Source: a virus
Virus record (IMG/VR): IMGVR_UViG_3300025018_000052
Span: 1-40,444 of that record
Length of the DNA stretch: 40,444 nucleotides
Direction: 5' to 3' (one strand)
Part shown: positions 10,064 to 40,444 of the stretch, one piece after another
Layout: every line of letters begins with the position of its first letter
Position numbering within the stretch: position 1 is the stretch's first letter
The notes under the pieces: generated by a model
What the model saw: only the letters and a program-made list of their open reading frames with translations
What the model was told of the DNA's origin: nothing
The model's database searches: none
Made by a program: the position numbers and the translations under genes

Positions 10064-10073
10064 TTTAAAAAAT

Positions 10074-11153: not shown

Positions 11154-11165
11154 CACTTTTGATTT

Positions 11166-12557: not shown

Positions 12558-12566
12558 TTTTTAAAC

Positions 12567-13088: not shown

Positions 13089-13097
13089 TTAATTAAT

Positions 13098-13319: not shown

Positions 13320-13552
13320 ATCTAGAAGTTGTAAAAGTCATTACAGAAGCGGGTAGCGTAGGAGTTTCGGCGGGGCTTATGTTTCTCTTTTATAGGCTTG
13401 CAGTACTCTTTAACAAAACAATGAACAATCACTTTGCACATACTGAAATGGCCTATAGGGACTTAGTAAAAGTTTTGGATAAACACACGGAGGTTTTGAA
13501 TGAAGTGTCAGTAACTATTAGTGGATGTAAAAATAATAAATATAATAGATAA
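13316..13552 (+). CDS. Small single-TM membrane protein (holin/antiholin-like)
   Basis: 78 aa with one N-proximal helix (GSVGVSAGLMFLFYRLAVLF) and a polar C-terminal half. Translationally coupled to the preceding ORF. Confidence 0.4.
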   Translation: MNLEVVKVITEAGSVGVSAGLMFLFYRLAVLFNKTMNNHFAHTEMAYRDLVKVLDKHTEVLNEVSVTISGCKNNKYNR

Positions 13553-13553
13553 A

Positions 13554-15967: not shown

Positions 15968-15970
15968 AAT

Positions 15971-17470: not shown

Positions 17471-17495
17471 AACTTTAAATAAATTAACTTAATAT

Positions 17496-19889
17496 ATGCC
17501 TACAATATACACGGGAACTAATAAGAAGATTGCGGAGAATACAGTTGCTACAGGTGGAACGGTCACAAATAGCGCGGTCATTAACTCTGTTAAGCCCGTA
17601 GTGGCAACTACGGTGACTAACGCCCCAAAGGTCGAACAAAGCGCCATTAATCCGGCCCCATCTAAGCTTGAAAAACAGCCTACGATTAAACCGGCCCCGG
17701 TCCCAATTAATAATGTTATAACCGGGACTCAAATTACAAACACAACAGGATCAACAGCAAAATCCGGGTATGCAGACAGTTCAAGTGTTCAAACTTTGAA
17801 AGCTAAGGCAATTGCGGGTGGATTATCAGAGGCTCAAGCCAATGAGGCTTTAAAAAACTATCAAGCAGGTTACCTTAATGAGCAAGATATTACGGCATAT
17901 TTTAACAAATTTGCTTCTGGAACAGCTGGAGTATCGGGTGTGGATGGTCAAACTCCGGGTGGTGGTGTTTCGGGTAGTCAAAGTCCTTATGATTATGATT
18001 CTTATGAGGAAAATGCAAACAAAGCTTTTGACGAATACAAGGCTTCTTTGGATGAGATTAAGGGAATGATGGAAGAGGGGAAAGAGGAAAAAATGGCGGC
18101 TATTGAACAGAAATATACATTAGAAATGGAAAACTTAGCACAGCTAAGACAACTTCAAGAACAATTGACGGCACAACAAAATGCTTTGGTTGCAGAATCT
18201 TCCGCTATCCAAAAACAAGAAATACAAAATGCTTATGACGCCAATAAAAAAGCAATTGAACTTCAACAAATTAAAGTTCAACAAAGTTATGACGCAATGA
18301 AGGAGCAACAGAAACTTGCAAATACTAGAAACACGATTAAAGCAGAAACAGCAATGGGTATGATCTATGGGTATGGATCGGCTGGAGCGAATAAAAACCT
18401 TGAGGACACTGTTGTAAAAGGAGAGGCCGCACTCAATCAATTAAGCAAAGACGCAGTAAATGCAGACACGGAGCTTCAAAATAAAGTTATCGAAATAAAT
18501 CAGGCTTATGAGCTTGATTTAAGAAAGATCGAGCAATGGAAGGCAGAAGAGACACAACAAAATTATGCGGCTTTACAGGGGTATTTAATGGAGATTAATG
18601 CAAAAGAAGACATGGCTGAAATTGATAAAATAAACGCCATAAATAGTGCGGTTGATAATTACAACAACACCATTGCACAAATAAACATGACTTCGGCGGA
18701 GACTAAATATGAATTAAGTCTTGGTCTTTTAGATAAAGTTCAAGAGTTTAGTATAGGGGCTCTTCAATATGAAAAAGCTCAAATTGATTTAGAGGCTACA
18801 AAGAGATCATCAAACTTAGAAGATTTAGATCTTTTATTGAAAACTTATTCAACAAGTGATTATGCAGACTTACCGGAAGATGTAAAGACAAGAATGCAGG
18901 AATTGTCTCAATCCTTGAATATGCCGGAATCTTTTGCTGGAGAGGCAATGGCTTTATACAAAGAGGCAAACACAAAAGAAGAATCTCCGGACTTTAAGTA
19001 TTACACTGACAATGATGGAAATGTAACGGCTATAACTTATAATCCCAAAACTGGCCAATTTGAGACGTATGATGTGGGAGCAGTTGATAGTGCAAAGGTT
19101 ACAAAAGCAGAAGATGTTTGGGATACGGAATACAATCCCAAAACTGGAAAAAATGAGCCATACAATAAAGAGACAAAACAATTTTCTACGGATGTTTCTG
19201 GTAAGGTAGGAACTCCCGCAGACGCTCTTAATGTTCCGGATGGAGCAAAAGGTGGTCAATGTGGGCGGTTTGTTAATAATTACACTGGCCTTGGAGTAGG
19301 GGATTCTTATGAGTCTAAAATGTCAAAGATGGATTCTACTATTAAGGTCCCTCAACCTGGGGATGTTTTCGTTATGCCTTATTCATGGACTGGTCATATT
19401 GGGTTTGTAGTCTCGGCAGATACAGCCTCTAATACAGCCGTGATAAAAGATTCCAACTGGAAACTCGATGAAACAGTTAGAACTCACACGGTTAAGTTGT
19501 CTTCACTTACTGGATTTTGGAGACCTGGCGGAAACAATTTATCAAACAGATCTTCTGAAATTGACGGATTCCTTCAAGTTGCGGAAACCTTAGGATATGA
19601 GGAGGCGGTCAAAACTATAAAGAATGAGTATTCAAATGATCAAGAACAGGCCTTCATGCTTAAGTTATTTAGAGAGGCGGTGTTCAATCAGCCTCAAGAA
19701 AGCCAAATGGCAGTTAATAAATATTTTGATAATTATACTCCGGGTGGATCTGTTGCTACTGATTTTGTGGTCCAAAACACTCAAAAGAATTTATTGAAGG
19801 ACACTTCTACTTCTCCTATAATTAACAGTATAGGAACTGGAAAGGCCCCTAGTTCGGGTGGAGATGATTGGGGAAGTTTGTCTTGGTAG
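17496..19889 (+). CDS. Coiled-coil virion protein with a CHAP peptidoglycan-hydrolase domain (internal/ejection or tape-measure-like protein)
   Basis: 797 aa with a long Q/E/K/A-rich coiled-coil centre. The CHAP signature is at about nt 19230-19540: catalytic Cys in GGQCGRFVNNY and His in GDVFVMPYSWTGHIGFVVS, then IKDSNW. Confidence 0.7.
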   Translation: MPTIYTGTNKKIAENTVATGGTVTNSAVINSVKPVVATTVTNAPKVEQSAINPAPSKLEKQPTIKPAPVPINNVITGTQITNTTGSTAKSGYADSSSVQTLKAKAIAGGLSEAQANEALKNYQAGYLNEQDITAYFNKFASGTAGVSGVDGQTPGGGVSGSQSPYDYDSYEENANKAFDEYKASLDEIKGMMEEGKEEKMAAIEQKYTLEMENLAQLRQLQEQLTAQQNALVAESSAIQKQEIQNAYDANKKAIELQQIKVQQSYDAMKEQQKLANTRNTIKAETAMGMIYGYGSAGANKNLEDTVVKGEAALNQLSKDAVNADTELQNKVIEINQAYELDLRKIEQWKAEETQQNYAALQGYLMEINAKEDMAEIDKINAINSAVDNYNNTIAQINMTSAETKYELSLGLLDKVQEFSIGALQYEKAQIDLEATKRSSNLEDLDLLLKTYSTSDYADLPEDVKTRMQELSQSLNMPESFAGEAMALYKEANTKEESPDFKYYTDNDGNVTAITYNPKTGQFETYDVGAVDSAKVTKAEDVWDTEYNPKTGKNEPYNKETKQFSTDVSGKVGTPADALNVPDGAKGGQCGRFVNNYTGLGVGDSYESKMSKMDSTIKVPQPGDVFVMPYSWTGHIGFVVSADTASNTAVIKDSNWKLDETVRTHTVKLSSLTGFWRPGGNNLSNRSSEIDGFLQVAETLGYEEAVKTIKNEYSNDQEQAFMLKLFREAVFNQPQESQMAVNKYFDNYTPGGSVATDFVVQNTQKNLLKDTSTSPIINSIGTGKAPSSGGDDWGSLSW

Positions 19890-19908
19890 TATTTAACTCA
19901 TTTTAAAA

Positions 19909-22900
19909 ATGGTATTAAACTGGAAAGATCTTCAAAAAAAGAAAGATCAGTTAGTAAAAACGGTCAATGTTATTGGTACAGGTCTTGCAGAAACACAAAA
20001 GCAAGCTGATATAAAAAAATCAGCGAAAAAAATAACAGATGTTAGAACTACAAAGCAATATCCCGGGGTCCCTATCACTAAAATAACAAACACCCCAAAG
20101 CCTTTATATGGGAACACGAGCTTAAGTCCATCAATGGCGGAAAATGTTTTGATTAATAAAGGAATTACTCCTAGTCCGACAAATGTTAAAAATTTTTCGA
20201 TAAAAGAAGATCCTACAAAAGGTGTATTACCTTCTAGTTTGAAAAACGACAATCGATCTGCGAAACAGAAACAAGAAGACAGTGAGCGAGCAAAAGAATA
20301 TTACAATTTTTATAATACAAATATAAGGAGAGCTAAAGAGGCTTGGGATATGGGAAATGCTACAGTTTTAGGAATAAAATCTGGAACTATATTGAGAGCA
20401 AAAAAACTTATTCCAACTTCAATTAGAGCAATTGCTGAAAATATTAACATGGATCCGTTTGGGCAACTTGATATGTTTGGAAAAAGAAACATGTCAGAAC
20501 TTGAACAAGCAAGAGAAGAGTATTCAGTTATGAAAGGGGAAACGGAGGACGTTTATTACAACTCCACGCTTGCACGGAATCCTTTGTATAACTGGGCAAT
20601 GGACACAATAAAAGATGTTGAGATAGAGGATGAGGATATTAGAAGACTTGCAACAGAGGGAAAGAGTGAACTTGTTAAGGAGGTTTTCAACATAGCACAA
20701 TCTTCCGCTTCTTTTTTGGCTACGGTTGCGGCTACGGTTATAACTAAAAATCCTACAGCATTAGCCGCTTTTGGAACATCCCTAGACAGTCTTGATACTT
20801 ACAATGAGGCAAGAAAAACACAAAGTCCATCCGGAGCTCTTATGTCTGTAAGTGCAGACGCTTCTGTTACTTTTGCTTTGGAAAAAATAGGTTGGGACGC
20901 TCTTATGGATACTTGGTCCAAACCATTAGCAAAACAAATATCCGACAAAATTCCACTCTTTAAAAATATTACTTTAAAAGCCCCTGTCGCAACAGCCATT
21001 ACAGGCAATGCGGTGTCTTCTGGAATCACGGAAGGTGTTCAAGAGGTTGTTCAAACTATGTGGCAAAATGCCGTGGCAAAATTTGGATATGATCATACAC
21101 GGGGAATAATGGACGGAGTTGTTGAAGCTTTCTTACTCGGTTCAGTTTTGGGAGGTGGAGCAACGGCAGTTTATCAAACAAAACAAGCTATTGAAGACAA
21201 GGAGAATATAAATAAGGCCAAAGAAGAGTTGAAGTCAAAGCTTGGTGTTGATGACACTCAAGCTCAAGCTTTAGCTTCATACTTACACAGTTTTACAAGA
21301 ACAGAATCTGGAATGTTTAAAAACAAAGTAGATTCAATGTTTAAAGAAAAGAGAACAGCAAATTATAAAGGACTACAAGACGCAGGCTCAAGACCTGGCA
21401 TAGATATTCCCGGGGAATTGCCTGTTCCGGAAAAAGTTACAACAGCCCCAGTAGTGAGTAAAGAAAAAGAATACAAACCAACTAGAAAGGTCCCGGAGGC
21501 TCAAGCTTATAATAACAGTGATTTCTTTTATGAACTGGATTATCACGGGGAAAGAGTTACAACAGATGGTGTTGTTCTTGAATTTAATTCAACAGTTAGT
21601 GCACCAAAGAATAAAAACACTTCTGGTAGGGTTCTTACTCAAGAGAATATTGATAGAATAGTTCCGGAAGGCGATTTAAAACCATTAAGCACCAAAGCGG
21701 TTTATACAAATGGGGCTTCTCTTAATGGGAAAGGCAAACAAAAACTAGAGCTTGTTTGGATGGGAGAGCCTAGTTCGAAAGTAGGGGAAGGGGTTGTTAT
21801 TAAGAAACAAATTTTTGATTATATAAAAGGGAAATACCCTTTAGCAAGCTTTAAATATAACGGCAGTTCAGATAGTTCTATTGCGGTTTTTGAAGGGGAA
21901 AAGATTGTTTCCTTGTTCATGCCTTTGACTAATAACTTTCAAAATACTCAACTTGGGGAAGAAAGTGAGCTATATTGGAGAGCGGAGGAATTGACAGGTA
22001 ACTCAAATGTTGATAGAATAGAATCAGATTTAAAAGACAACACAAATGATACAAGTTCCAAAAGACAAATTTCCTCTCCTAGCGGAGTATCAGGAGAACA
22101 ATCCGGAGGGGTATATGCAGACAATCAACAATCTCCGGAAAGCGGACAGAGAACCCCTAGCCAAAGAGAGCGAATATTGGGGGCAGATCGAGAGCGATCT
22201 GGAACATCTAAGGGGGGCTTAAATAAAAAGGCTAAAGAACTTTTAGATTCTGGAAAAAAGCCAGAAGATTTTACCGATGAGGATATAGAGCTTTTGAAAA
22301 GTTATAGTGGAATGGGTGGATCTGGAGAAGCTGGGAGAGGTTTACTTGATGAATACTACACCCCTCCAAAAGTTATTGATAAGATGTGGGCTCTTGCAAG
22401 AAAGCATGGATTCACGGGCGGATCAGTTCTTGAGCCTAGTGCGGGAGTGGGTAGGTTTATTGATCGTGGACCGGATGAAAATGTTAAATATACGGCACTT
22501 GAGATAGATGATACATCTTCCAAAATTGCAAAAATAGTATTAGGAAAAAAAGCAGATGTTAAACAAATGCCTTTTGAGAATCTTTTTGTAACAGAAACTG
22601 GCAAAGCTATAGAAATAGAAAATACATACAATTTAATTATAGGAAACCCGCCATACGGAGAACACCGTGGGTATTATAAAGGGTTAGGGGAAGAATCAAA
22701 AATCTCTAAATATGAGGATTATTTCATTAAAAGGTCCCTAGATTTAGCAAAGGATAATGGCCTAGTTGTAATGGTGGTCCCTAGTGGATTTTTGAAAACG
22801 ACAGTGTCTTATTCAAAAAAACAAATAGCTAAAAGTGGGGAGCTTGTAGAGGCTTACCGTTTACCGGAAAAGATTTTTGACAAGACTTCTATTGGTACAG

Positions 22901-25900
22901 ATATTTTAGTATTTAAAAAGAATACTACTGCGGACGACAACCTTTTAGAGCAACGTCTTGATAGTTTAGCAGGAGATTCTTATTTTAAAGAAAATAAATC
23001 AAAAATTTTAGGAGAAACAAAAGAAAGAAAATCAAGATTTGGAAAGATGGAAGTGTATGTTACTGGGAATGAGGATGTTTTAGACAACATAGTATTAACA
23101 GAGTCTCAAGATAACGGACCGAAAGTTTTCAAGGAAGTTACTGAAAAGATAACTAAAAAGAAAAAAGCACTTGAAGGCACCGAATCAACAGCTAAAGTAG
23201 AGGAATACTCATTAAGAGAGGAAACAGGTCAATTGTTTAGCACAATGCACCTTACAGACGCTGATAAGAATATTTGGAGGAATAAGTCGGCTGATGGAAG
23301 TCTCGTTATCAAAAACTTAACAGGAGCTGAAATTAACACTCTTAATATATTTAACGGAAAATACTTTGATGACTTTGATTATTTACAGGGAAATATTTAC
23401 GAAAAAATAGACGCACTTGAAAATGAAAACATTTCTGAAGAGAAAAAAGACGAGCAAAGAGCAAAGCTTGAGAAAATTTTACCTAAGCCAAAGAAATTAG
23501 AGAACATCTATCTCAATCCTTTAGGGGATTTTGCTTCTAGTTTTAAATATGAAACCTCCACGGCTAGATCTGATGTAGAGACTCTTACTTTAAAAGAAGG
23601 ATTTCTTGATTATCTTAGAGGACTCCCTAGAGACGCTTTCGCACCTTCTGATATGTGGGAGACTATGGGGTATGTGAGGGGGGACCGAGTCAACACAAGA
23701 GGGGATGTTGTTTTGGCAAATACTATTAAGAAGAGAAGAAAACATGTTGCGGAAAAATTGTTTCCTAAATTTTTAGAAACTCTTGATAAAGACACTAAGA
23801 CTAAAATAGAAGATCAGTTCAATAAAGAAAAAAATGGTTTTGTTTCCCCGGATTACAAGAAGGTACCATTATTCGTAGATGGTCTTGATATGACTTTTGG
23901 GGGAAGGGGCTTGAAGATTGGGGAATATAAGATAGATTCTATTGGCTTTCTCTCAAATAGAGGAACAGGAATCAATGCAAATGGTGTGGGATTGGGTAAA
24001 ACAATGATGGCCATAATATCAACCGCTCAAGATGTTCAGAAGGGTTGGTATAAAAGACCTTTGTTTATTGTTCCAAAAGGAGTTTATAATAAATGGATTG
24101 AAGAGATCCGTTTACTTTTCCCTAAACAGAAAGTCGTAGGGCTTGGAAACTTGGGTGTGGGGTATGGCATAAAATCTGCGGACGATATTAAAGCTAAGAT
24201 CAATGATGGAGATTTTACTGTAATGACTTATGAGGCTATTGCTCAATTAGGTTTTAAACCAGAAACTCAATCAAGTCTACTTGGGGAAATTAATAATGCT
24301 TATACGGAAGTGGGAAATAAAACAGAAAGGGCAAGAGCAAAAAAAATGGAGCAAATTCAAGATATTTCAGGAAAAGGAAAAATCCGGGCGGAAATAAAAG
24401 TTGAGGATTTGGGCTTTGATAATTTAATCGTAGATGAGGCTCATAAGTTTAAGAACATTTTTTCAAGAGCTAAGGAAAACAAAGACAGCGACAGCAAAGC
24501 ACAATCGGGTAGATGGGGAGGAATAACAGGGCAGTCTTCCGCAAGGGGGGTTAAAATGTGGTTATTATCTCAATATGTTCAAAATAAAAACGACGGAAGA
24601 GGAGTTAAGTTATTGACAGCTACACCGTTCACAAACAACCCCTTGGAGTTTTACAATGTATTGTCTCTTGTTGCGATGAAGGACATGAAGGCAATGGGTG
24701 TAGATAACATTAATACCTTTATGGATACTTTTTTGAAGACCACTAAAAAGTATGTTGTAAAATCTGGAGGTAAATATGATTTGGCGGATGTTGTTGAAGA
24801 TTGGCAGAACAAGGATATTTTAAAGGGGCTTATAAAAAGATATATAGATTTCAAGGATGGAGAAGATTATGGAGTTATAAGGCCTACAAAATTTAAAAAA
24901 GACTACAGATTTAACGCTACAAAACAGCAACTTGAGTATTTGCAAAAAGCACAAGAACTCCTAGATCCCAAACTAAAAAACAAAGGGGGATCACTTATGT
25001 ATATAGATGAAGCAAAAAAAATAACACTTTCCCCTTATCTTTCAAGATACTACAACGGTCCATTGCCTACTCCAAAAGAATTTGTGGAATCTTCTCCAAA
25101 ACTAATGGGAATGATGACGATGATCAAGGCGAACAGAAAAAAAACAGGACAAGTTATTTATTTTCCTTATGAGGTTGATCAAATGCCTCTACTTCGAGAA
25201 TACCTAGTTGATGTGTTAAAATATAAACCATCGGAGGTTGGTATTATTCACGGGAAAATTGATGACAACGTAAGGGAAAGAGTCAAGAAAGATTTTAATT
25301 CAGGAAAAGTAAAGGTAATTATAGGATCAGACGCAATTAAAGAAGGGGTAGATTTACAAGAGAGGTCTACAGATCTATATCTTACATCTTACCCCTGGAC
25401 GCCTACAGACGTGATACAGGTTGAGGGTCGAATACATAGACAGGGAAATATTTATAAAAATGTAAGAATTAATTTTTTATCTTTAAAAGATTCTGTAGAT
25501 TCGTTTCTTTTTCAGAAGCTTGATACAAAAACTAAAAGACTTGCAAATGCAGACGCTATAACTCAAACACTTGAAGGGGACAACATGGACTATGAATCAA
25601 TGACATCTGATCTTATTACAGATCCAGCCTTTAAGCTTCAAGTGAAAACGGCAATTAAAAAAGAAAGGGCAGACACTAAAATTAATGGACTTAAAAGTGA
25701 AATAGCTTTACTGGAAGAACAGACTAAGAAATATAAGGAAGCAGAGGCGGAGATACAAGTTACTCAAGAGTGGCTTGATGATCCACGCAATGCCGAGTCT
25801 TGGAATATGGATAATTACAGAAAAAAGAACAAGAAATCAACTAAAACTCTTGAAACGCTAAAAGAAAGGAATGTTGATCCAGAAGTTAATCAGGCTAGAA

Positions 25901-28900
25901 TATCTGAACTCGAAAAAGTTTTAGAGGCTACAATTGCTAAAAACAAAGAATCAGAAGAACGGCTAAAAGAAGAATCGAAAAATTTACCGGAATTTATTGA
26001 GAAGGATCCGGAGCCAAACGACTTTAAGGCACTTGAAAAACAGCTTCTTGAAGAGAATAAAACTTTTATCGTTTTAAAAGGGAAAGATGAAGATCAGACC
26101 GTCAAGGCTTCAAAAGCTTCTTCCTTAGAAGAGAACGTTTTGCCTTCGGTCATGATGGAATCCAGCATAGAAAGTGAACCTTTAACAGGGGCGGATGTTC
26201 CGTCCTTAAAGAGTTCAGAGACCTTGCCGGATGAATCTTTGGAGAGCATTGATGAAAAATCAAAGACTCTTTCTTCCCAGAGAATGAAATTTCTTGAGAG
26301 ATTTGACATGGGCTATGGATTAGTTGACACTACAAGGATAGATGATTTTATTAGCTTTGTCAATACTAATGTTTCAGAATATGATCAGTCCGTCAAAGAT
26401 CTTACTATAAAAACTCAATCAGAGGCATATTTTTACAGGGTAAAAGAATCTAAGAGTGTGGCTTCAAAGCTTAAGAGAAAGAGAGAAAAGACACTTGGCA
26501 CTTTAAATGATATGATTGGAGGGACTATTGTTACTGAAAATATTGATAATGTTTTAGGTGAATACAAAAAAGACAATTCCGAAAAGAGTATTGATGATAT
26601 GAGGACTCGTCCTTCTATGTGGGGATATGATGGTGTTCATCTTGAGAAAGAATTATCTTCCGGGATGTTTACGGAGATACAAGTACATACAAGAGAAAAA
26701 CTTTACCAAAAAGAATACGCTCATACTATTTACGAAAAATACAGGGAATATTTTGAAAGCAATGAGGTAGTTGAACTTTCAGATCAAGCCTTAAAGGATA
26801 AGATGGGCGAGGCGGTATATTCTGAATATTTAAAAGATATTCAACTTTCTCGTGATGTTTATGCTGGGATAGTTCCGGTCCCTCAAGAATTTATCGACAA
26901 GGCAAATGAGAGAATTAATAAAAACAAGATTGTTTTAGAAGAGGAAGTATCAACAGAAAACAAAACGGAAAGCGTAATGACAGGCTCGGCACAAACAGTT
27001 GATGGATTAAAACCCGTCAAGGTATCAAAAATAACTAAGGACTTATCCTTAGTTGATGTTGGTGGTAAAGAGATGTTGACGGAGGCTAAGACAAGTGAAG
27101 AAATCAAAGAGGAAGTATCTAGTTTTATTGAAGATCAATCAAATATAAAAGAAGGGGATGTTGTGGAAATTAATGAAAAATCCCCGGATTTATCCCCCAT
27201 GGAAAAGCAGGCGGTTGTCGTTTCCGGAAATAAAGATATGTCGGTTGTAGAGGTTGATGGAGGCTTTAAGGTTGTCGAAAGCAAGGACTTAAAACCGCTA
27301 GAAATATCTGATGAAATTAAAGAGCCTAAAAAACCTAAAAGACTTAAAGTTGCAAATGAAAAGACAGCGATAGAAGATTTACCGCCGTCTCCTCCAGAAA
27401 GTGATTTACTTGAAACAGATGGTCCGGATGATGGAACTGTAGATTTTGATTTAACAAAGTTTGAAAGAATGAGAGTTATTGTTCAAGATAAAGCAATAGG
27501 GCTTGATAAAGCTCAAAAGATTATGGGAGAAGGGAAAAATGTTCAAGAAGATGTTGATATGTATATGGAGTACGAGCTTTATTCTGGAGCAGTAACAGCG
27601 GCTATAGAAAAATTTGAGAGAAACGAATGGAAGCCATTACAAGATGAACTCGTAAAATTTACCAGTCTCTCCCCAGATCATTCACAGCTAATACAGAATT
27701 ACTTGTGGCTTTCACATGCTGAAGAACGGAATAAAAATCACTATGATGGGGCGGCTGGAATAACGACAAAAGAAGCGAGGATGAAATTGAAAGAGTTAAA
27801 GCAATTACCGCAGTTCCCAGAAATGCAGAAAATAGCACAACAATTCCAATCTCTAGCGAAAAAACTTCCCGAATATTTGTATAAAAACGGGATGATAAAG
27901 CAGAAAGAGTATGAATCACTTTTGACATTGTATAAAAATTATATTCCTCTACAAAGGATATTACCAGACAATGGCGACTTTAGTCAAGCTTTAGGAATAG
28001 GAAAAGGGTTTGACACTCGTGGAACTGACATAAAAAAGGCTAAGGGAAGTGATTTAGAGGTTGCAAACATTTTAGAGTCAATTCGTTTGAACTGGGAAAG
28101 GGCTATTATAAGGGTCCATAAAAACAATGTAGGAAAGACGGTTTATAAGTTTGCTAAAGACTATAGTAAACTATCTTTGTTTAAATTGGTTCGTGGAAAA
28201 CTTAAGCTAATGGAAGTTGATGGGGATATAATAAGGACTATTGAGCCTCCTTCTGGGGATAATATCCTTACTGTAAAAATTGATGGAGTTCAAAAATACA
28301 TAAAAATAACAGATCCTACAGTTGCTAATGCTTTAAAGAATCTTGATTCTCAACCTATGAATGTTGCAATGAGGACTCTTTTATCTTTTACAAGATTTTA
28401 TTCAATGATCAATACTTCATTGAATCCAGAGTTTATCATAAGCAATGCAATTAAAGATATTCAGACGGCCTCTCTTAACACTTCTAAAGAGTTTGGGATG
28501 TTTGGCATGGCTCGTAATGCAAAAGTTTTTCCAGAGGCATATAAAGGAGTATTTGACGCCTTGAGGGGGAATGATACCACTATGGCTAAACTTTATAATC
28601 AGATGAGGGAACTCGGAGGTACTACGGGTTATTATAATTTATCGAACAGAGAAGAAATCGCAAACAAAATTAGAGAAGGAGAAGACGCTTTGACTCTTAA
28701 TAGTGTAGGTAAACTAAAAAGTGGTGGAAAAAAAGTTCTTGAGTTAATAGACTTTATCAATGATGTTGTAGAAAATGGAACACGTCTTGCGGTTTATAAG
28801 GTTGCTATTGATCAAGGTTTTTCTCCAAAGAAAGCCGCTCAATTAGCGAAAAATGCAACTGTTAATTTTAACAAGAAAGGAACTATTGGTCCGGGCCTTA

Positions 28901-29997
28901 ATGCTCTTTACGCATTTTCAAATGCTTCAATACAGGGATCTGCGAATGTAATTAAAACTCTTTCAAATCCTAAGAGCTTTGCAAAAATTACAACATTAAT
29001 ATCTGTTGTAAGTGCATTACTTCAATCTTGGAATAGGGCTATTGATGAGGAAGGGTATGAAAAAATAGACTCGTCGATCCGTGAATCAAACTGGGTATTT
29101 ATGGTTGGAGGAGGGAATTACATCAAATTAGGGCTTCCTTATGGATATAATGTAATAAAAGTTACGGCAGATAATATTTATGAGCTTTCTATAGGAAAGA
29201 CTGTTGCTATGGATAGTTTTAAATCTGTCTCGGGGGCTATGATTAATGCTTATAATCCTGTTGGTGGAGCTGATTTATTCAATGCTTATGTGCCTACATT
29301 CTTTAGGCCAATACAAGAAGTTTATGTTAATAAAGGTTGGCACGGAGGGAATATAGCCCCAATGAACATGACTGGGGTTAAGGAGAGTTTAAACTATTCT
29401 GAAAATGAAAATCCGATCTTCGTTAATTTGTCTAAGTATATGAGCAAATTTACAGGTGGAAGTTATGGAAGGAGGGGAGTTTTGGAAGTTTCTCCAGCTG
29501 GGATTGAATATTTATGGAATCAATATACAGGTGGTGTGGGACGGTTTATAATGGGAAATGCTAAGACTGTAGTCAATCTTGCAACTGATCCAGAAAACAT
29601 TGAGACAAAAGATATTCCTTTTTGGAGAAAAGTTGTTGGAAAGGTTGATGTCGAAAGGTACAACAGAAATTATATTTATGATATAATTGATAAATCTAAA
29701 AAGACTCCTTTAACAGAAGACGAAAAGATGGATTTCATGAGGGTATTAAAAGAAGAAGGGGAAAACAAAAGAATAACAATGAAAGAGGCTAAAGACTATA
29801 TGAATAAAGCTAAAAGCGGACAAGAAGACCTTACACAGACTAAAAAAGTTGTAGATTATATTGAGCGTCAAAATTGGTCCGAGGAAAAACTTAATCAGTT
29901 TCTTAATGAAAAACTAACAGATAACTCTTGGACCAAAGCTCAAGGATTAGGAACATTCACTAAAACCCAAATAAAGATGATTAGGAGCGAGTTGTAA
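19909..29997 (+). CDS. Giant polyvalent protein (3362 aa): N6-adenine DNA methyltransferase, SNF2-family helicase, RelA/SpoT-like nucleotidyltransferase and a large C-terminal module
   Basis: A single uninterrupted ORF. MTase at about nt 22340-22925: YYTPP, motif I LEPSAGVGRF, motif IV NPPYG. SNF2 helicase at about nt 23960-25480: GVGLGKT, VDEAHKFKN, LLTATPFTNNPLEFYN, QVEGRIHRQGN. RSH-like domain at about nt 26422-26760: RVKESKSVASKLKRK, NDMIGGTIV, WGYDGVHLE, TEIQVHT, AHTIYEKYR. Confidence 0.85.
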   Translation: MVLNWKDLQKKKDQLVKTVNVIGTGLAETQKQADIKKSAKKITDVRTTKQYPGVPITKITNTPKPLYGNTSLSPSMAENVLINKGITPSPTNVKNFSIKEDPTKGVLPSSLKNDNRSAKQKQEDSERAKEYYNFYNTNIRRAKEAWDMGNATVLGIKSGTILRAKKLIPTSIRAIAENINMDPFGQLDMFGKRNMSELEQAREEYSVMKGETEDVYYNSTLARNPLYNWAMDTIKDVEIEDEDIRRLATEGKSELVKEVFNIAQSSASFLATVAATVITKNPTALAAFGTSLDSLDTYNEARKTQSPSGALMSVSADASVTFALEKIGWDALMDTWSKPLAKQISDKIPLFKNITLKAPVATAITGNAVSSGITEGVQEVVQTMWQNAVAKFGYDHTRGIMDGVVEAFLLGSVLGGGATAVYQTKQAIEDKENINKAKEELKSKLGVDDTQAQALASYLHSFTRTESGMFKNKVDSMFKEKRTANYKGLQDAGSRPGIDIPGELPVPEKVTTAPVVSKEKEYKPTRKVPEAQAYNNSDFFYELDYHGERVTTDGVVLEFNSTVSAPKNKNTSGRVLTQENIDRIVPEGDLKPLSTKAVYTNGASLNGKGKQKLELVWMGEPSSKVGEGVVIKKQIFDYIKGKYPLASFKYNGSSDSSIAVFEGEKIVSLFMPLTNNFQNTQLGEESELYWRAEELTGNSNVDRIESDLKDNTNDTSSKRQISSPSGVSGEQSGGVYADNQQSPESGQRTPSQRERILGADRERSGTSKGGLNKKAKELLDSGKKPEDFTDEDIELLKSYSGMGGSGEAGRGLLDEYYTPPKVIDKMWALARKHGFTGGSVLEPSAGVGRFIDRGPDENVKYTALEIDDTSSKIAKIVLGKKADVKQMPFENLFVTETGKAIEIENTYNLIIGNPPYGEHRGYYKGLGEESKISKYEDYFIKRSLDLAKDNGLVVMVVPSGFLKTTVSYSKKQIAKSGELVEAYRLPEKIFDKTSIGTDILVFKKNTTADDNLLEQRLDSLAGDSYFKENKSKILGETKERKSRFGKMEVYVTGNEDVLDNIVLTESQDNGPKVFKEVTEKITKKKKALEGTESTAKVEEYSLREETGQLFSTMHLTDADKNIWRNKSADGSLVIKNLTGAEINTLNIFNGKYFDDFDYLQGNIYEKIDALENENISEEKKDEQRAKLEKILPKPKKLENIYLNPLGDFASSFKYETSTARSDVETLTLKEGFLDYLRGLPRDAFAPSDMWETMGYVRGDRVNTRGDVVLANTIKKRRKHVAEKLFPKFLETLDKDTKTKIEDQFNKEKNGFVSPDYKKVPLFVDGLDMTFGGRGLKIGEYKIDSIGFLSNRGTGINANGVGLGKTMMAIISTAQDVQKGWYKRPLFIVPKGVYNKWIEEIRLLFPKQKVVGLGNLGVGYGIKSADDIKAKINDGDFTVMTYEAIAQLGFKPETQSSLLGEINNAYTEVGNKTERARAKKMEQIQDISGKGKIRAEIKVEDLGFDNLIVDEAHKFKNIFSRAKENKDSDSKAQSGRWGGITGQSSARGVKMWLLSQYVQNKNDGRGVKLLTATPFTNNPLEFYNVLSLVAMKDMKAMGVDNINTFMDTFLKTTKKYVVKSGGKYDLADVVEDWQNKDILKGLIKRYIDFKDGEDYGVIRPTKFKKDYRFNATKQQLEYLQKAQELLDPKLKNKGGSLMYIDEAKKITLSPYLSRYYNGPLPTPKEFVESSPKLMGMMTMIKANRKKTGQVIYFPYEVDQMPLLREYLVDVLKYKPSEVGIIHGKIDDNVRERVKKDFNSGKVKVIIGSDAIKEGVDLQERSTDLYLTSYPWTPTDVIQVEGRIHRQGNIYKNVRINFLSLKDSVDSFLFQKLDTKTKRLANADAITQTLEGDNMDYESMTSDLITDPAFKLQVKTAIKKERADTKINGLKSEIALLEEQTKKYKEAEAEIQVTQEWLDDPRNAESWNMDNYRKKNKKSTKTLETLKERNVDPEVNQARISELEKVLEATIAKNKESEERLKEESKNLPEFIEKDPEPNDFKALEKQLLEENKTFIVLKGKDEDQTVKASKASSLEENVLPSVMMESSIESEPLTGADVPSLKSSETLPDESLESIDEKSKTLSSQRMKFLERFDMGYGLVDTTRIDDFISFVNTNVSEYDQSVKDLTIKTQSEAYFYRVKESKSVASKLKRKREKTLGTLNDMIGGTIVTENIDNVLGEYKKDNSEKSIDDMRTRPSMWGYDGVHLEKELSSGMFTEIQVHTREKLYQKEYAHTIYEKYREYFESNEVVELSDQALKDKMGEAVYSEYLKDIQLSRDVYAGIVPVPQEFIDKANERINKNKIVLEEEVSTENKTESVMTGSAQTVDGLKPVKVSKITKDLSLVDVGGKEMLTEAKTSEEIKEEVSSFIEDQSNIKEGDVVEINEKSPDLSPMEKQAVVVSGNKDMSVVEVDGGFKVVESKDLKPLEISDEIKEPKKPKRLKVANEKTAIEDLPPSPPESDLLETDGPDDGTVDFDLTKFERMRVIVQDKAIGLDKAQKIMGEGKNVQEDVDMYMEYELYSGAVTAAIEKFERNEWKPLQDELVKFTSLSPDHSQLIQNYLWLSHAEERNKNHYDGAAGITTKEARMKLKELKQLPQFPEMQKIAQQFQSLAKKLPEYLYKNGMIKQKEYESLLTLYKNYIPLQRILPDNGDFSQALGIGKGFDTRGTDIKKAKGSDLEVANILESIRLNWERAIIRVHKNNVGKTVYKFAKDYSKLSLFKLVRGKLKLMEVDGDIIRTIEPPSGDNILTVKIDGVQKYIKITDPTVANALKNLDSQPMNVAMRTLLSFTRFYSMINTSLNPEFIISNAIKDIQTASLNTSKEFGMFGMARNAKVFPEAYKGVFDALRGNDTTMAKLYNQMRELGGTTGYYNLSNREEIANKIREGEDALTLNSVGKLKSGGKKVLELIDFINDVVENGTRLAVYKVAIDQGFSPKKAAQLAKNATVNFNKKGTIGPGLNALYAFSNASIQGSANVIKTLSNPKSFAKITTLISVVSALLQSWNRAIDEEGYEKIDSSIRESNWVFMVGGGNYIKLGLPYGYNVIKVTADNIYELSIGKTVAMDSFKSVSGAMINAYNPVGGADLFNAYVPTFFRPIQEVYVNKGWHGGNIAPMNMTGVKESLNYSENENPIFVNLSKYMSKFTGGSYGRRGVLEVSPAGIEYLWNQYTGGVGRFIMGNAKTVVNLATDPENIETKDIPFWRKVVGKVDVERYNRNYIYDIIDKSKKTPLTEDEKMDFMRVLKEEGENKRITMKEAKDYMNKAKSGQEDLTQTKKVVDYIERQNWSEEKLNQFLNEKLTDNSWTKAQGLGTFTKTQIKMIRSEL

Positions 29998-30391
29998 GAA
30001 ATTCTGAAACAAAACCAATTGCCTCATCCGCACCAAAACATATACGAGCTTCGACATTTTCGATAGTGTTTATTGCATTGATCCAGTTTTTTTGATCTTC
30101 TTTAATTGTGTATTTTTTTATTCTTTTCATTTCAACAAACAACATACAAGCTTTTTTTGTTTTTGATTGTTTAGCTGGGATTATTACTAATAAGTCTGGA
30201 AGGCCAGAGCGTACACCCATTGCTATGTTTTCAGTCAATTGCCATCCCGATGGGGTCCATGTGCTATTAGGAATTGCCGTAAATTTTAGTTTTTTAACTT
30301 CTAGCCATTGAACAAAAGCTTTTTGTTCATCCGCCTCATAAGGAATTACTCGGTTAGGTACACTTTTTTGTTTTCTTTTAAAGTAAGGCAT
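29981..30391 (-). CDS. VRR-NUC domain nuclease (PD-(D/E)xK superfamily)
   Basis: 136 aa. EADEQKAFVQWLE ... GVRSGLPDLLVI ... MLFVEMKRIKK ... QKNWINAI matches the VRR-NUC layout (E, PD, ExK, Q..W). Confidence 0.8.
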   Translation of the reverse strand: MPYFKRKQKSVPNRVIPYEADEQKAFVQWLEVKKLKFTAIPNSTWTPSGWQLTENIAMGVRSGLPDLLVIIPAKQSKTKKACMLFVEMKRIKKYTIKEDQKNWINAINTIENVEARICFGADEAIGFVSEFLTTRS

Positions 30392-31112: not shown

Positions 31113-31369
31113 AGTGTGTTTAAAAATTTAGTAAAGTTTTCAACATCTTTTGCCGGAGTGTCTTTATAAAAAATAATAACTTTTCCTAAAGGACTTTCTT
31201 TATAAAACATTTTACGAGTGATGTTTAATCCGTATATTTCCCCAAAAGTTTTCTTGAATCCATATTTTAGAAAAAATTTTAGGATATAAAAAGAATATTT
31301 ATAAGACCCATACTTAATGGCTGAAAGTTTTGTAATTTCTGTAATGTTTTTTTTAAAGTATTTTTTCAT
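31109..31369 (-). CDS. Hypothetical protein
   Basis: 86-aa ORF with a 4-nt overlap with the downstream gene and a 17-nt overlap with the upstream gene, on the same strand as its neighbours. Confidence 0.4.
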   Translation of the reverse strand: MKKYFKKNITEITKLSAIKYGSYKYSFYILKFFLKYGFKKTFGEIYGLNITRKMFYKESPLGKVIIFYKDTPAKDVENFTKFLNTL

Positions 31370-31832
31370 TCAAAATATAAGTTAAAATATGCTCAATAAC
31401 TTTACAATTAAAACCGTTCCCTAAACATTTATATCTTTGAGTATTCGAAATGCCTTCGGTGTAATTATCTGGTAAGGACTGTAGGCGTTCGCACTCTATC
31501 GGTGTTAATTTTCGGATAAAAAAATCCTCTTGAACCATTGAATCGGTTTGAACTGTTGTCAATGAATTTGCTTTGTCGGTCCTGTTATATTCTGGCTGTT
31601 TCCCTTCTCCCCTATTTCGCAAAGCAACGGGGGATACGAGCAATTGACCCGCAACCGCACTTGAACATTGCGGATTCGTTCCGAGCCTTTTTATTTCTGG
31701 AAAGTTTTTTTCAGAAATTTGAATTGCGTATTTATCGACCTCGCTTGAATAATATTCCTCAACTGGAATGTTTAGGTTTTTAAGAGCTTGTCTTGCGATT
31801 GATATTCCATCAAAGAGTGATAATACGTCCAT
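31353..31832 (-). CDS. Truncated C5-cytosine DNA methyltransferase-like protein (N- and C-terminal motifs only; core missing)
   Basis: 159 aa. Motif-I-like VLSLFDGIS and SSEVDKYA at the N-terminus. Motif IX/X-like RKLTPIECERLQSLPDNY ... CLGNGFNCKVIEHI at the C-terminus. Only a scrambled motif-IV-like GTNPQCSSAVAGQ lies between them. No ENV or QxRxR motifs. Confidence 0.6.
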   Translation of the reverse strand: MDVLSLFDGISIARQALKNLNIPVEEYYSSEVDKYAIQISEKNFPEIKRLGTNPQCSSAVAGQLLVSPVALRNRGEGKQPEYNRTDKANSLTTVQTDSMVQEDFFIRKLTPIECERLQSLPDNYTEGISNTQRYKCLGNGFNCKVIEHILTYILNEKIL

Positions 31833-32283
31833 TGTGTTTTTTTAAAGTTGGATAACAATTGTAAAAAGCTAACAAACTGGGAAAAGGGGCGGATCCACTT
31901 CCTTTTTGTAGCCCCTCAAATTTGAGCCTTCCTTTTATAAAAGCAAGATGAGCTTTTCCCAAAACATAATCATGAAAATATTTAGTGTCTGTCCTTGAAG
32001 GCATTAGTAATACAATTGTTGCTTTTGAACTTTCTTCGTAGCATTTTTTAATCCACTTTGGCATATCTCGTCCATAAGGTGGATTACAAAAGACTGTTTC
32101 GTTTTCCCATGATTGTATGAGACCATCTTGTTCTTTTGTGAAAAATTTTCGACACTTTGCATTGAGCGGTGTAGCACATGGATCAAGCGTAAAATTGTAA
32201 GACTCGTTTAATTCATTAAAAAGTCCTTGTGGTGTTCCCCATTCTACAGACTCGCTACTTAACATTGTTTTTATATTTTTCAT
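31810..32283 (-). CDS. dam: Phage Dam-type DNA N6-adenine methyltransferase
   Basis: 157 aa. EWGTPQGLFNELN..FTLDPCA..NAKC ... VFCNPPYGR ... LLMPSRTDTKYFH ... FIKGRLKF follows the small phage Dam family layout. Confidence 0.8.
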   Translation of the reverse strand: MKNIKTMLSSESVEWGTPQGLFNELNESYNFTLDPCATPLNAKCRKFFTKEQDGLIQSWENETVFCNPPYGRDMPKWIKKCYEESSKATIVLLMPSRTDTKYFHDYVLGKAHLAFIKGRLKFEGLQKGSGSAPFPSLLAFYNCYPTLKKHNGRIITL

Positions 32284-40409: not shown

Positions 40410-40444
40410 AAAAAAACCGCAGGGGAAAATAGATAAAGTTAAAC
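40318..40444. repeat. Terminal direct repeat, copy 2 (identical to 1-127)
   Basis: Base-by-base identity with the first 127 nt. Confidence 0.95.

Follow-up and report, generated by a model that had tools for sequence, protein, structure and literature searches.

A quarter of the genome of an uncultured phage is given over to one gene, which raises the question of what its product is and where it acts. The window analysed here covers positions 1 to 40,444 of IMG/VR record IMGVR_UViG_3300025018_000052. A sequence-only reading had described the gene product as a polyvalent protein and, from its particular domain combination and genomic cost, suggested an injected counter-defence effector. The explanation that we favour, at a probability of about 0.65, is that this polyvalent protein is made late, enters the capsid in few copies and is expelled through the tail with the DNA, its modules delivering a DarB-like cargo together with a RelA/SpoT-homologue (RSH) cargo.

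An intact giant gene at the end of the virion module

Comparison of the window ends revealed a 127-bp exact direct repeat at the termini, which gives a unit length of 40,317 bp. The features that frame the giant gene are the following:

527-2257, TerL
2692-4692, portal
6421-7389, capsid protein
17496..19889, plus strand, CHAP neighbour of 797 aa with a coiled-coil-like region (Pfam CHAP, 27.5 bits), upstream of the giant gene
19909..29997, plus strand, giant polyvalent-protein gene, 3362 aa, complete, ATG start, TAA stop

An ORF of 10,089 nt could be an artefact, either an assembly chimera or several genes joined through sequencing errors, since collapsed frameshifts sometimes yield very long ORFs and this sequence is known from metagenome assemblies only. 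At the base composition of the window, however, the probability of a stop is 0.074 per codon and that of 3362 stop-free codons about 10^-112; the two remaining forward frames are interrupted by 239 and 365 stops. Two public contigs, one from ENA (MEGAHIT, 40,458 bp) and one from JGI (40,440 bp), differ in assembler and source and contain the DNA of the ORF with 0 mismatches. The 3362-aa protein has sisters in P0002 and P0121 (3454 and 3621 aa), each collinear with it from end to end, and the order of its modules is common to dozens of relatives of 2,300-5,900 aa. Given the identical DNA in other assemblies and the collinear sisters, a chimera or hidden frameshift in 19909-29997 appears very unlikely, and an artefactual origin of the ORF is scarcely conceivable. 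The single uninterrupted ORF reported earlier is thus intact and makes up 25.02% of the 40,317-bp circular assembly.

The giant gene is the last of the plus-strand virion module, with the CHAP gene before it and minus-strand genes after it. As the earlier reading had it, the gene directly follows a CHAP-bearing coiled-coil protein: the 17496-19889 product combines a CHAP domain (motif GGQCGRF) with a coil-like stretch at aa 191-383, and is probably a virion-associated peptidoglycan hydrolase that degrades the cell wall. The sister phage L003 has the same layout, with a CHAP gene directly ahead of its giant gene, and the end-of-module arrangement recurs in phages JC1 and phi24B.

Several matches speak for a podovirus-type tail, which is likely rather than proven: the portal has a weak P22-like match, the ORF at 14381-15967 matches a P22 gp10-type 'stabilization protein', the nearest terminase is that of podophage CRP-7, and L003 gives a weak match to the SU10 adaptor. 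Against a short non-contractile tail counts the ORF at 15971-17470, which has one domain in common with myophage sheath proteins. The annotated ORFs of the 40-kb genome include neither an integrase nor a repressor, and the translation signals of the phage are Bacteroidota-like.

Two terminal modules frame the cargo

Along the giant protein, the following segments are distinguished, all on the plus strand:

19909..20574, N-terminal variable region (aa 1-222)
20575..21426, conserved N-terminal helical scaffold domain (aa 223-506)
21427..21966, beta-rich region (aa 507-686)
22216..25998, DarB-homologous block: methyltransferase (MTase), then SNF2 helicase, then coiled coil (aa ~770-2030)
22351..22941, N6-adenine DNA methyltransferase domain (aa 815-1011; Pfam, PADLOC and PDB matches)
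23965..25446, SNF2-type helicase with two RecA-like lobes (aa 1353-1846; Pfam, NCBIfam, PADLOC)
25627..25992, charged coiled-coil-like segment ending the DarB-like block (aa 1907-2028; composition proxy)
26275..26934, RSH pyrophosphokinase cassette, in a swappable cargo slot (aa 2123-2342)
26935..27405, acidic low-complexity linker (aa 2343-2499; read from the translation)
27406..29994, C-terminal helical scaffold module (aa 2500-3362, about 860 aa)
29050-29622, LPD38 (PF18857) within the C-terminal module (aa 3048-3238; 126 bits against a cut-off of 27)

All the motifs quoted in the sequence-only reading occur exactly once in the translation, each at the place given for it. The first residues (aa 1-222) have no Pfam, PHROG or PDB match and align with P0121 only, not with P0002. 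They are followed by the helical, partly hydrophobic N-terminal region recognized earlier, which proved to be a conserved helical domain (aa 223-506) shared with P0002 (44% identity) and P0121, and present as well in the small RelA-cargo proteins P0127, P0131, P0134 and P0142. Motif lookup places its SSASFLATV... stretch at aa 265-288 and its GVVEAFLLG... stretch at aa 403-422; the invariant columns of alignment A3 include TKNP (aa 279-282). At aa 400-422 the domain has a hydrophobic helix rich in glycine, and it contains the sole 19-residue hydrophobic window of the whole protein. No Pfam or PDB relative of the domain was found, and its AF2 model, all-helical, is unusable at a pLDDT of 41. 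The beta-rich region (aa 507-686) has no family match in Pfam or PHROG and is not conserved in P0002.

At the other end, the C-terminal module that had been estimated at about 870 aa is delimited here to about 860 aa and contains LPD38, along with matches to phrog_14770, phrog_616 and phrog_10691. In relatives this module always forms the extreme C-terminus. Its AF2 model is mostly helical (pLDDT 65) and has no fold match in the PDB by Foldseek (E > 1, TM < 0.15), while all of its 66 matches in BFVD are C-terminal parts of phage polyvalent proteins. The cargo is thus enclosed by two conserved non-enzymatic modules, the helical TKNP domain at the N-terminus and the LPD38 module at the C-terminus, and from their position and distribution both would have a role in delivery. 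No solved or annotated relative of the terminal modules was found.

A DarB-like methyltransferase-helicase block

The resemblance to P1 DarB that had been noted from the sequence is borne out by BLASTP, which yields three collinear alignments, at aa 772-1005 (MTase, E = 3e-21), 1255-1653 (SNF2 N-lobe, 8e-27) and 1790-2018 (C-lobe and coiled coil, 3e-13). The phrog_10089 'DarB-like antirestriction' family also matches the giant protein (E = 1.3e-85), and tblastn retrieves the 'DarB-like' giants of Bcep22, JC1 and Ralstonia phages. Profile searches support both enzymatic assignments of the earlier reading. For the N6-adenine methyltransferase, in which motif I (LEPSAGVGRF, aa 841-850) and motif IV (NPPYG, aa 913-917) are in place, Pfam Eco57I (42 bits) and N6_Mtase (37.8 bits) both exceed their cut-offs, PADLOC orphan and type II MTase models match, and the PDB match is 3lkd, a type I M subunit. 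For the SNF2 helicase, Pfam SNF2-rel_dom, ResIII and Helicase_C match, DrmD- and BrxH-like SNF2 models of NCBIfam and PADLOC match the C-lobe, and the expected motifs are all present: GVGLGKT (aa 1359-1365), DEAH (aa 1509-1512), TATP (aa 1570-1573) and QVEGRIHRQG (aa 1837-1846). The long charged coiled coil proposed to follow them corresponds to aa 1907-2028, on the strength of a composition proxy and of its BLASTP pairing with DarB aa 1570-1664.

Stand-alone Dam-like and C5 MTases are also encoded in the genome, so that protective methylation of progeny DNA does not depend on the giant protein, and any function of its MTase at entry is uncertain.

An RSH cassette in an exchangeable slot

The RelA/SpoT-like domain proposed from the sequence is confirmed by profile. 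On the whole 3362-aa protein, RelA_SpoT reaches 24.2 bits, under the Pfam cut-off of 27, whereas the isolated segment reaches 31.2 bits against the PF04607 cut-off of 27, and 30 of 30 family members match PF04607; an exhaustive search returned 92 matches. The synthetase motifs RxKxxxSxxxK, DxxG, GYxxxH, ExQ and HxxY are all found, the core motifs spanning aa 2176-2278, and in alignment A1 (30 homologues) the K, K, D, GY, ExQ and HxxY positions are invariant. The canonical ExQxRT reads EIQVHT in the cassette, with R replaced by H.

Against the PDB, the top match of the RSH profile is Tas1/Apk1 (6ox6, E = 1.3e-16; 64 bits), then RelP (54 bits), RelQ (47), Rel (40) and FaRel2 (37); 7ztb, a RelA/SpoT-family protein that may be CapRel-like, scores 25 bits. 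This ranking is suggestive, and only suggestive, of (p)ppApp as the product, the lead of Tas1 over the (p)ppGpp synthetases being only about 10 bits.

Relatives differ in what they carry between the terminal modules. P0002 aligns with the giant protein at aa 223-506, 687-2088 and 2376-3362 and leaves 2089-2375 unaligned; its own slot gives a weak, sub-threshold Zeta_toxin match. In P0121, the cargo is RelA plus ART-PolyVal, while P0125 and P0137 contain just the RelA cassette and the C-terminal module, with neither MTase nor helicase. Among relatives, the cargo between the terminal scaffold modules is interchangeable. At the acidic linker that follows the cassette (aa 2343-2499), homologue coverage falls to about 2.

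A slot that swaps toxin-type domains (RelA, ART and possibly the sub-threshold Zeta-like one) brings to mind a different use, in which the RSH domain and other toxin cargo would be directed at competing bacteria or phages and not at the phage's own infection. The particle would then be partly a toxin vehicle, or the protein would bring about superinfection exclusion or abortive infection. Such a role has come under discussion for Apk2, Bxa and other MuF-fused toxins, the function of phage-borne RSH toxins being described as open (PMC10083569), and the best solved relative of the cassette, Tas1/Apk1, is an interbacterial toxin. However, Apk2 loci are always accompanied by a Tis1-like gene (PMC10083569), whereas no recognisable immunity gene adjoins the giant gene. 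More broadly, no HD or SAH family of immunity, antitoxin or alarmone-hydrolase type was found in the scanned ORFs, with libraries that hold no Tis1-like model and with several small ORFs unannotated. The lack of integrase and repressor among the annotated ORFs likewise gives no sign of the lysogeny in which competition toxins pay off, and the DarB-like block in the same chain has a function that classically promotes infection. A competition role is on this evidence quite unlikely.

Virion-associated homologues and the absence of cysteine

Two homologues have been found in purified podovirus virions. JC1 gp69 was represented by 51 unique peptides in the mass spectrometry of CsCl-purified virions (PMC9144972); its homology to the giant protein by tblastn extends over aa ~816-3289, covering the MTase-helicase block and the C-terminal module. 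The gp47 protein of phi24B is abundant in virions by mass spectrometry, is invisible in cryo-EM, and is proposed by its authors to be an ejection protein (bioRxiv 10.64898/2026.04.10.717836). Here the C-terminal module is the only part that aligns with the giant protein, with 754 bits for the A2 profile of this module and a BLASTP E-value of 4e-75.

The composition of the giant protein is also unusual: it has 0 Cys in 3362 residues, against 76 in 9074 (0.84%) in the other ORFs (P = 5e-13), and this absence is family-wide among its relatives. The ejected proteins N4 gp50, gp51 and gp52 and T7 gp15 and gp16 are also devoid of Cys, and Cys suppression is a published signature of Schitoviridae ejection proteins (PMC11445570). 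The CHAP neighbour contains 1 Cys in 797 residues, the CHAP nucleophile itself. Absence of Cys is not universal among packaged proteins, since P1 DarB has 9. By analogy with the ejected proteins, a Cys-free chain would fit transit through the oxidising periplasm as loosely folded 'beads on a string'.

Virion-associated homologues, the shared gene position and the complete absence of Cys together support the injected-effector reading, and we infer, with good support, that the giant protein would be packaged and injected. The homologues that carry the inference on packaging, copy number, processing and ejection share 25-28% identity with it, and the phage is uncultured.

The same data bear on two other readings. 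In one, the giant protein would be a non-packaged late enzyme of the producing cell, methylating and remodelling progeny DNA in the cytoplasm ahead of packaging, altering host nucleotide pools through its RSH domain, and never reaching the next host. Its enzymatic motifs are intact and could act wherever it is made, and neither a packaging signal nor a processing protease was identified, the latter in that no processing-peptidase family is among its Pfam, PHROG and NCBIfam matches. This reading is nevertheless unlikely: homologues directly related to the giant protein are physically in virions, the separate Dam-like and C5 MTases already serve progeny-DNA modification, the gene lies at the end of the structural module and not among replication genes, and a purely cytoplasmic location leaves unexplained the lack of any Cys, which matches ejected proteins.

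In the other, the giant protein would be mainly structural, a conduit or tail component such as a single-chain ejectosome or tape-measure-like protein, in which the enzymatic domains are secondary or inactive passengers. A trans-periplasmic conduit that gp47 forms, or to which it contributes, is put forward in the phi24B study (bioRxiv 10.64898/2026.04.10.717836); the terminal modules, long and helical, are conserved, and tblastn and profiles reveal no ejection proteins of T7 or N4 type encoded separately in the genome. Yet the MTase, helicase and RSH catalytic motifs are intact and conserved across relatives, which argues for selection on enzymatic activity, the 3362 residues include a single hydrophobic helix, and Foldseek with the C-terminal model gives no structural match among T7 or N4 ejectosome proteins or elsewhere in the PDB. 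A mainly structural protein is decidedly improbable. A conduit function is compatible with the favoured explanation and does not exclude it.

A proposed model for delivery and action

Under the favoured reading of packaging and ejection, the giant protein would be synthesized late, taken up by the capsid in a small number of copies and, as infection starts, expelled through the tail alongside the DNA. The terminal modules would serve for this uptake and for passage across the envelope or anchoring there. Once inside the cell, the DarB-like block may act on or along the entering DNA and weaken restriction, much as DarB of P1 counters type I systems. The RSH domain would release pyrophosphorylated nucleotide in a burst, (p)ppApp being the most likely product and (p)ppGpp the other candidate, or could alternatively pyrophosphorylate tRNA. 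In either case host metabolism, translation or nucleotide-dependent defences would be halted ahead of phage gene expression. Exchange of the cargo slot between related phages would be as expected in an arms race.

Comparison with known systems

The giant protein belongs, with good support, to an already described class, that of the polyvalent proteins of Iyer et al. (2017) and the Bcep22-type 'DarB-like' giants. Its earlier designation as a polyvalent protein in this sense is upheld by LPD38 (126 bits) and by nearest relatives with LPD1, ART-PolyVal and other polyvalent domains. As in other members, a single giant polypeptide combines LPD domains with several conflict-related enzymatic domains, here an N6A-MTase, an SNF2 helicase and an RSH pyrophosphokinase with intact motifs, and the gene lies beside structural genes in a terminase-portal phage. 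It differs in having no lysozyme domain and neither a zincin-like MPTase nor a MuF-C peptidase, the commonest hub of the class though not an obligatory one. Neither the domain combination nor the genomic cost is unprecedented: MTase, SNF2, RelA/SpoT and LPD38 are all listed as phage-type polyvalent components, RelA/SpoT and LPD38 being phage-only (Iyer et al., 2017, PMC5512222), and the giant gene of JC1 takes up 22.1% of its genome, against 25% here. Acquisitions of RelA/SpoT were traced to prophages of Spirochaetes and Epsilonproteobacteria (Iyer et al., 2017, PMC5512222), and the Bacteroidota-like translation signals of the present phage suggest a further lineage.

The giants of Bcep22-like phages (Lessievirus) and of Ralstonia podophages, among them the 'DarB-like antirestriction' proteins JC1 gp69 (4515 aa) and Bcep22 gp75, are likewise encoded by the last gene of a plus-strand virion module and have a homologous MTase, SNF2 helicase and LPD38-type C-terminus, with ~25% identity over 54-56% of the query. 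In contrast to the present protein, they carry their own soluble lytic transglycosylase in-chain, whereas the CHAP hydrolase is here a separate upstream gene, and they come from ~60 kb genomes of phages with high-GC Betaproteobacteria hosts. A RelA/SpoT domain goes unmentioned in the available part of the JC1 paper (PMC9144972), a comparison made by description only.

With P1 DarB (2255 aa), the giant protein shares the collinear block of N6A-MTase, SNF2 helicase and coiled coil, as well as association with the phage particle, which is probable for the giant protein. DarB has no N-terminal TKNP domain, RSH cassette or LPD38 module. P1 is a myovirus, and its DarB is a capsid-packaged anti-restriction protein that shields incoming DNA in cis against type I systems and whose packaging requires DarA, Hdf, DdrA, DdrB and Ulx. 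These accessory proteins are not detectable here, tblastn of all five against the window giving nothing better than E = 0.5.

The phi24B gp47/933W-type proteins of Stx phages (about 2810 aa), with LPD5, LPD1, LPD38 and MuF-C, match the C-terminal module end to end, are encoded by the last gene of the late region and are nearly Cys-free (2 Cys in 2807 aa for gp47), but carry a metallopeptidase instead of MTase, helicase and RSH (bioRxiv 10.64898/2026.04.10.717836).

Tas1/Apk1, Apk2 and the toxSAS proteins FaRel, FaRel2 and CapRel have the RSH synthetase fold and catalytic motifs in common with the cassette. Apk2, a phage-encoded, MuF-fused (p)ppApp synthetase toxin from a Bacteroides prophage, shows that fusion of such an enzyme to a phage capsid-targeting domain is possible (PMC10083569). 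In the present protein the RSH domain is carried by an LPD38-type polyvalent scaffold and not by MuF, PAAR or a toxin-antitoxin module, EIQVHT replaces ExQxRT, and no Tis1-like, Aph or SAH immunity gene was recognised with libraries lacking a Tis1-like model.

Finally, the N4 gp50 vRNAP (3500 aa) and T7 gp15/gp16 are similarly very large, Cys-free and encoded at the distal end of the virion module. The N4 vRNAP has loosely connected domains, like 'beads on a string', and is ejected, then refolded (PMC13434306), which offers a plausible physical model for the giant protein. There is, however, no sequence or fold relationship to N4 gp50-52 or T7 gp14-16 (tblastn, profiles and Foldseek of the C-terminal model), and the cargo differs, RNA polymerase or lytic transglycosylase there and MTase-helicase plus RSH here. 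The layout of a scaffold with a swappable slot, together with its minimal relatives, adds detail to the polyvalent class rather than a new category.

An uninterrupted giant gene

The polyvalent protein is encoded by a single open reading frame (ORF), in a genome whose assembled ends repeat each other:

19909-29997, +, giant ORF, uninterrupted, ATG start, TAA stop, 3362 aa
1-127 and 40318-40444, exact direct repeat of 127 bp, assembly overlap

Given the base composition of the window, one stop would be expected per ~13 codons and 3362 stop-free codons have a probability of ~10^-112; the other two forward frames contain 239 and 365 stops. The G+C content inside the gene (0.35-0.38) equals that of its surroundings. 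The protein is also recorded from two other contigs, one of 40,458 bp (ENA) and one of 40,440 bp (JGI), with 0 mismatches in the gene DNA. Because of this identical DNA in two contigs, and because the protein is collinear end to end with two sister proteins, an assembly chimera or a hidden frameshift is very unlikely. The intact ORF described in the sequence-only reading is thus confirmed, and each of the motifs quoted there occurs exactly once, in the place assigned to it. An exact terminal direct repeat is typical of circular assembly, and the one found here points to a genome that is circular, or circularly permuted, with a unit of 40,317 bp, of which the giant gene therefore represents 25.0%.

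A DarB-homologous block in the central part

Pfam searches on the whole protein returned five domains:

aa 815-1011, N6_Mtase / Eco57I, above cut-off
aa 1353-1523, SNF2-rel_dom / ResIII, above cut-off
aa 1738-1846, Helicase_C, above cut-off
aa 2177-2277, RelA_SpoT, 24.2 bits, below the cut-off of 27
aa 3048-3238, LPD38 ("large polyvalent protein associated domain 38"), 126 bits

The methyltransferase (MTase) and SNF2 helicase that had been recognized from short motifs thus both pass profile searches. In PHROGs, the protein matches phrog_10089, 'DarB-like antirestriction' (E = 1.3e-85), and its C-terminal ~750 aa are covered by three families without known function. NCBIfam and PADLOC yielded only generic DrmD/BrxH-like SNF2 C-lobes and MTases of the orphan or type II kind, with scores well under the equivalog cut-offs. 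Direct BLASTP comparison with DarB of phage P1 (sequence from NC_005856) gave three alignments whose order is conserved between the two proteins:

aa 772-1005, MTase, 31% identity, E = 3e-21
aa 1255-1653, SNF2 N-lobe, E = 8e-27
aa 1790-2018, helicase C-lobe and coiled coil, E = 3e-13

No BLASTP match to P1 DarB was found outside aa ~770-2030. The collinearity of the three alignments bears out the likeness to P1 DarB that had been noticed earlier and, at the level of sequence comparison, identifies aa ~770-2030 as a true DarB-homologous block. The giant protein may accordingly possess anti-restriction activity; Dar accessory proteins are not detectable in the phage genome.

A RelA/SpoT homologue as cargo

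Since its Pfam score was sub-threshold, the RelA_SpoT segment was tested separately. An exhaustive phmmer search of 1.84 billion representatives with aa 2089-2375 retrieved 92 proteins with E <= 1e-3. In an alignment of 30 of these 92, K, K, D, G-Y, E-x-Q, and H-x-x-Y are invariant, which is the synthetase signature of RelA/SpoT homologues (RSH); the corresponding motifs of the giant protein are YRVKESKSVASKLKRK, NDMIGGTIV, WGYDGVHLE, TEIQVHT, and HTIYEKY. Once isolated, the segment exceeds the cut-off of PF04607 with 31.2 bits, and family members match this model in 30 cases out of 30. A profile was needed for comparison with the PDB, as single-sequence phmmer gave no match there; the best profile match is Tas1/Apk1, a type VI (p)ppApp-synthetase toxin (6ox6, E = 1.3e-16), followed by RelP, RelQ, long Rel enzymes, and FaRel2. 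These results confirm the RelA/SpoT-like domain of the sequence-only reading and establish it as a real RSH domain. Its product could for instance be (p)ppApp, a point that is beyond sequence to decide. Neither an alarmone hydrolase nor another recognizable immunity gene was found in the phage genome.

Constant terminal modules flanking exchangeable cargo

The closest relative, P0002 (3454 aa, from a 40.9-kb contig), aligns with the giant protein at aa 223-506, 687-2088, and 2376-3362, leaving unaligned the slot at aa 2089-2375 that holds the RSH segment; the slot of P0002 instead gives a weak Zeta-toxin-like match (19.3 bits, sub-threshold for a cut-off of 22.3). The other full-length sister, P0121 (3621 aa), has kept the RelA cassette and carries an ART-PolyVal ADP-ribosyltransferase directly after it. 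Two short relatives, P0125 (1754 aa) and P0137 (1507 aa), combine the C-terminal module with the RelA cassette and lack MTase and helicase. The N-terminal helical domain is also present in small RelA-carrying proteins, and its alignment reveals a TKNP motif that never varies, together with a hydrophobic helix rich in glycine; in the giant protein this helix (aa 400-422) is the sole strongly hydrophobic 19-residue window. As for the C-terminal module (~750-860 aa), practically every relative ends with it, regardless of what precedes it. Together, these alignments and module positions describe a protein in which constant N- and C-terminal modules flank exchangeable cargo.

Apart from LPD38 in the C-terminal one, the terminal modules match no Pfam family, and they have no sequence relative in the PDB, where profiles of both modules also retrieved nothing. 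The C-terminal module as modelled with AlphaFold2 consists mostly of helices (pLDDT 65, pTM 0.52), and this model gave only noise against the PDB with Foldseek (E > 1, TM < 0.15); against BFVD, it matched 66 predicted viral structures (highest TM, 0.71), each of them the C-terminal portion of a large polyvalent protein from a phage. The N-terminal model (pLDDT 41) was too poor and was kept out of the fold search. Because the fold searches had no PDB match and the N-terminal model was of this quality, it is the distribution of the terminal modules, rather than their fold, that suggests a role in delivery.

Evidence for packaging and ejection

Homologues of the giant protein have been detected in virions. 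JC1 gp69 (4515 aa, 22.1% of its genome) is encoded by the last gene of the virion module and was identified through 51 unique peptides from CsCl-purified virions (PMC9144972); it is homologous to the giant protein over aa ~816-3289. The phi24B gp47 protein, which carries LPD5, LPD1, LPD38, and MuF-C, is plentiful in virions, missing from the cryo-EM map, and proposed by the authors to be an encapsidated ejection protein (bioRxiv 10.64898/2026.04.10.717836). Its C-terminus matches the profile of the C-terminal module over the whole model (754 bits); phi24B gp47 has no other part in common with the giant protein. In addition, a CHAP peptidoglycan hydrolase gene lies directly upstream of the giant gene, both here and in the sister phage, and a strand switch follows directly downstream.

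Amino acid composition points in the same direction. None of the 3362 residues of the giant protein is a cysteine, versus 0.84% in the other 30 ORFs (P = 5e-13), and most relatives of 2,300-5,700 aa also lack this residue. The ejection proteins gp50, gp51, and gp52 of N4 (identities from PMC13434306) likewise have 0 Cys in 4294 aa, versus 1.1-1.4% in N4 replication enzymes, and T7 gp15 and gp16 have 0 in 2065 aa, versus 1.1% elsewhere. Such an absence cannot be presented as a new discovery, as it was already published for ejection proteins of Schitoviridae and attributed to passage through the periplasm (PMC11445570). Nor is it universal: P1 DarB has 9 Cys, for which reason the signature is supportive but not decisive. 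From these data, we infer that the giant protein is packaged and ejected, and its earlier interpretation as an injected counter-defence protein is supported within the reach of sequence analysis.

The phage and its likely host

Several other genes of the genome encode virion proteins or candidates for this role:

527-2257, terminase, nearest relatives at ~30% identity from an uncultured phage and Roseobacter podophage CRP-7
2692-4692, portal, weak P22-like match only
6421-7389, capsid protein
11166-12557, +, 463-aa ORF with a CBM_4_9 carbohydrate-binding domain (43 bits), likely a receptor-binding or fibre protein
14381-15967, 528-aa ORF, weak likeness to P22 gp10-type 'stabilization' protein
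15971-17470, +, 499-aa ORF with one DUF3383/E217_gp31_N domain of ~100-140 aa (42.6 bits)

No match to the portal was obtained by tblastn, and 25 kb of the window had no megablast match among GenBank phages. The domain of the 499-aa ORF resembles the tail sheath of small myophages (tblastn matches to the Magia and vB_YenM_P744 sheaths), and a myovirus was considered on this basis but neither adopted nor dismissed, as the match concerns only one domain of the ORF. In CRP-7, three large hypothetical proteins, gp33-35 (1223-1368 aa, encoded within 9753-21261), stand at the distal end of the virion module and have 0 Cys each, consistent with ejection proteins. They were examined as a split version of the scaffold and rejected: they are Cys-free too, but show no homology to the profiles of the C-terminal module or the TKNP domain.

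Further genes are found outside the virion module or next to the giant gene:

29981-30391, -, VRR-NUC nuclease (31.6 bits), convergent with the giant gene and overlapping its last 17 nt
31353-31832 and 31810-32283, both -, two small MTase genes
32974-34032, -, M23 peptidase (77.6 bits), probably an endolysin or second wall hydrolase
38600-40240, +, full-length GroEL-type chaperonin, 546 aa

One small MTase is a Dam-like N6-adenine enzyme (92.9 bits), and the other, a 158-aa ORF, resembles C5-cytosine MTases in their C-terminal part alone (65.3 bits); counting the giant protein, MTase-type functions thus number three in this phage. The giant gene of the sister phage has an M23 peptidase gene (20382-21050) directly downstream. 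The chaperonin (Cpn60_TCP1, 165.6 bits; phrog_5725 'chaperonin groEL', 364.6 bits) is encoded here by a 40-kb genome; phage-encoded GroEL is known mainly from far larger phages. That it aids folding of the 3362-aa protein is speculation.

Translation signals provide a clue to the host. Shine-Dalgarno-like AGGA, GGAG, or GAGG sequences between -20 and -3 precede 1 of 31 genes, and the regions upstream of the 31 ORF starts are A/T-rich (…TAAAAA-ATG). Both features are typical of Bacteroidota and their phages, which suggests a diderm Bacteroidota host. No prophage-based assignment could be made, as the whole giant protein had no close relative in IMG/VR or GTDB genomes.

A possible single-chain delivery device

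T7- or N4-type ejection proteins are not detectable in the phage genome. A tentative reading, to which we give roughly one chance in five, is that the TKNP domain and the LPD38 module form a self-contained, single-chain delivery device for which no such ejection proteins would be needed. The terminal modules would first dock the giant protein to the portal, after which they would form or thread a trans-envelope conduit, so that enzymatic cargo of any kind placed between them would be delivered, here a Tas1-like (p)ppApp synthetase and a DarB-like enzyme. In biochemical terms, infection would then begin with an alarmone or ATP-depletion burst disarming nucleotide-dependent defences.

Comparison with known systems

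Polyvalent proteins were defined by Iyer et al. (2017), with components that include MTase, SNF2, RelA/SpoT, and LPD38, the latter two being restricted to phage-type polyvalent proteins, and an alarmone-like response was proposed to shut down the host (PMC5512222). Bcep22-like giants, annotated as 'DarB-like antirestriction', occupy a similar share of their genomes. Since the class, the domains, the genome position, the size, and the virion association are all published, the giant protein belongs to a described class and opens no new category. This class gains two known patterns: the Cys-free signature of ejected proteins and Tas1/Apk-like RSH domains in virion proteins. A related case is Apk2 of a Bacteroides prophage, in which a (p)ppApp-synthetase toxin is joined to a MuF domain that targets the capsid (PMC10083569); whether toxins of this type are injected is described there as an open question (PMC10083569; PMC12691689), and single-chain delivery, if true, would provide a direct example of an RSH toxin injected by a phage.

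The giant protein would be a compact example of several counter-defence activities in one virion-delivered chain, at the cost of one quarter of a 40-kb genome. Its sisters point to a design rule, with two constant terminal modules, an exchangeable slot (RelA, RelA and ART, possibly Zeta-like), and an optional DarB block, that could help to find new injected effectors and perhaps to engineer phages delivering chosen enzymes. With ~25% identity to cultured examples of the class, it is a new and divergent member, distinguished by an RSH cassette and a DarB block on an LPD38 scaffold, by having no processing peptidase, and by a separate CHAP hydrolase.
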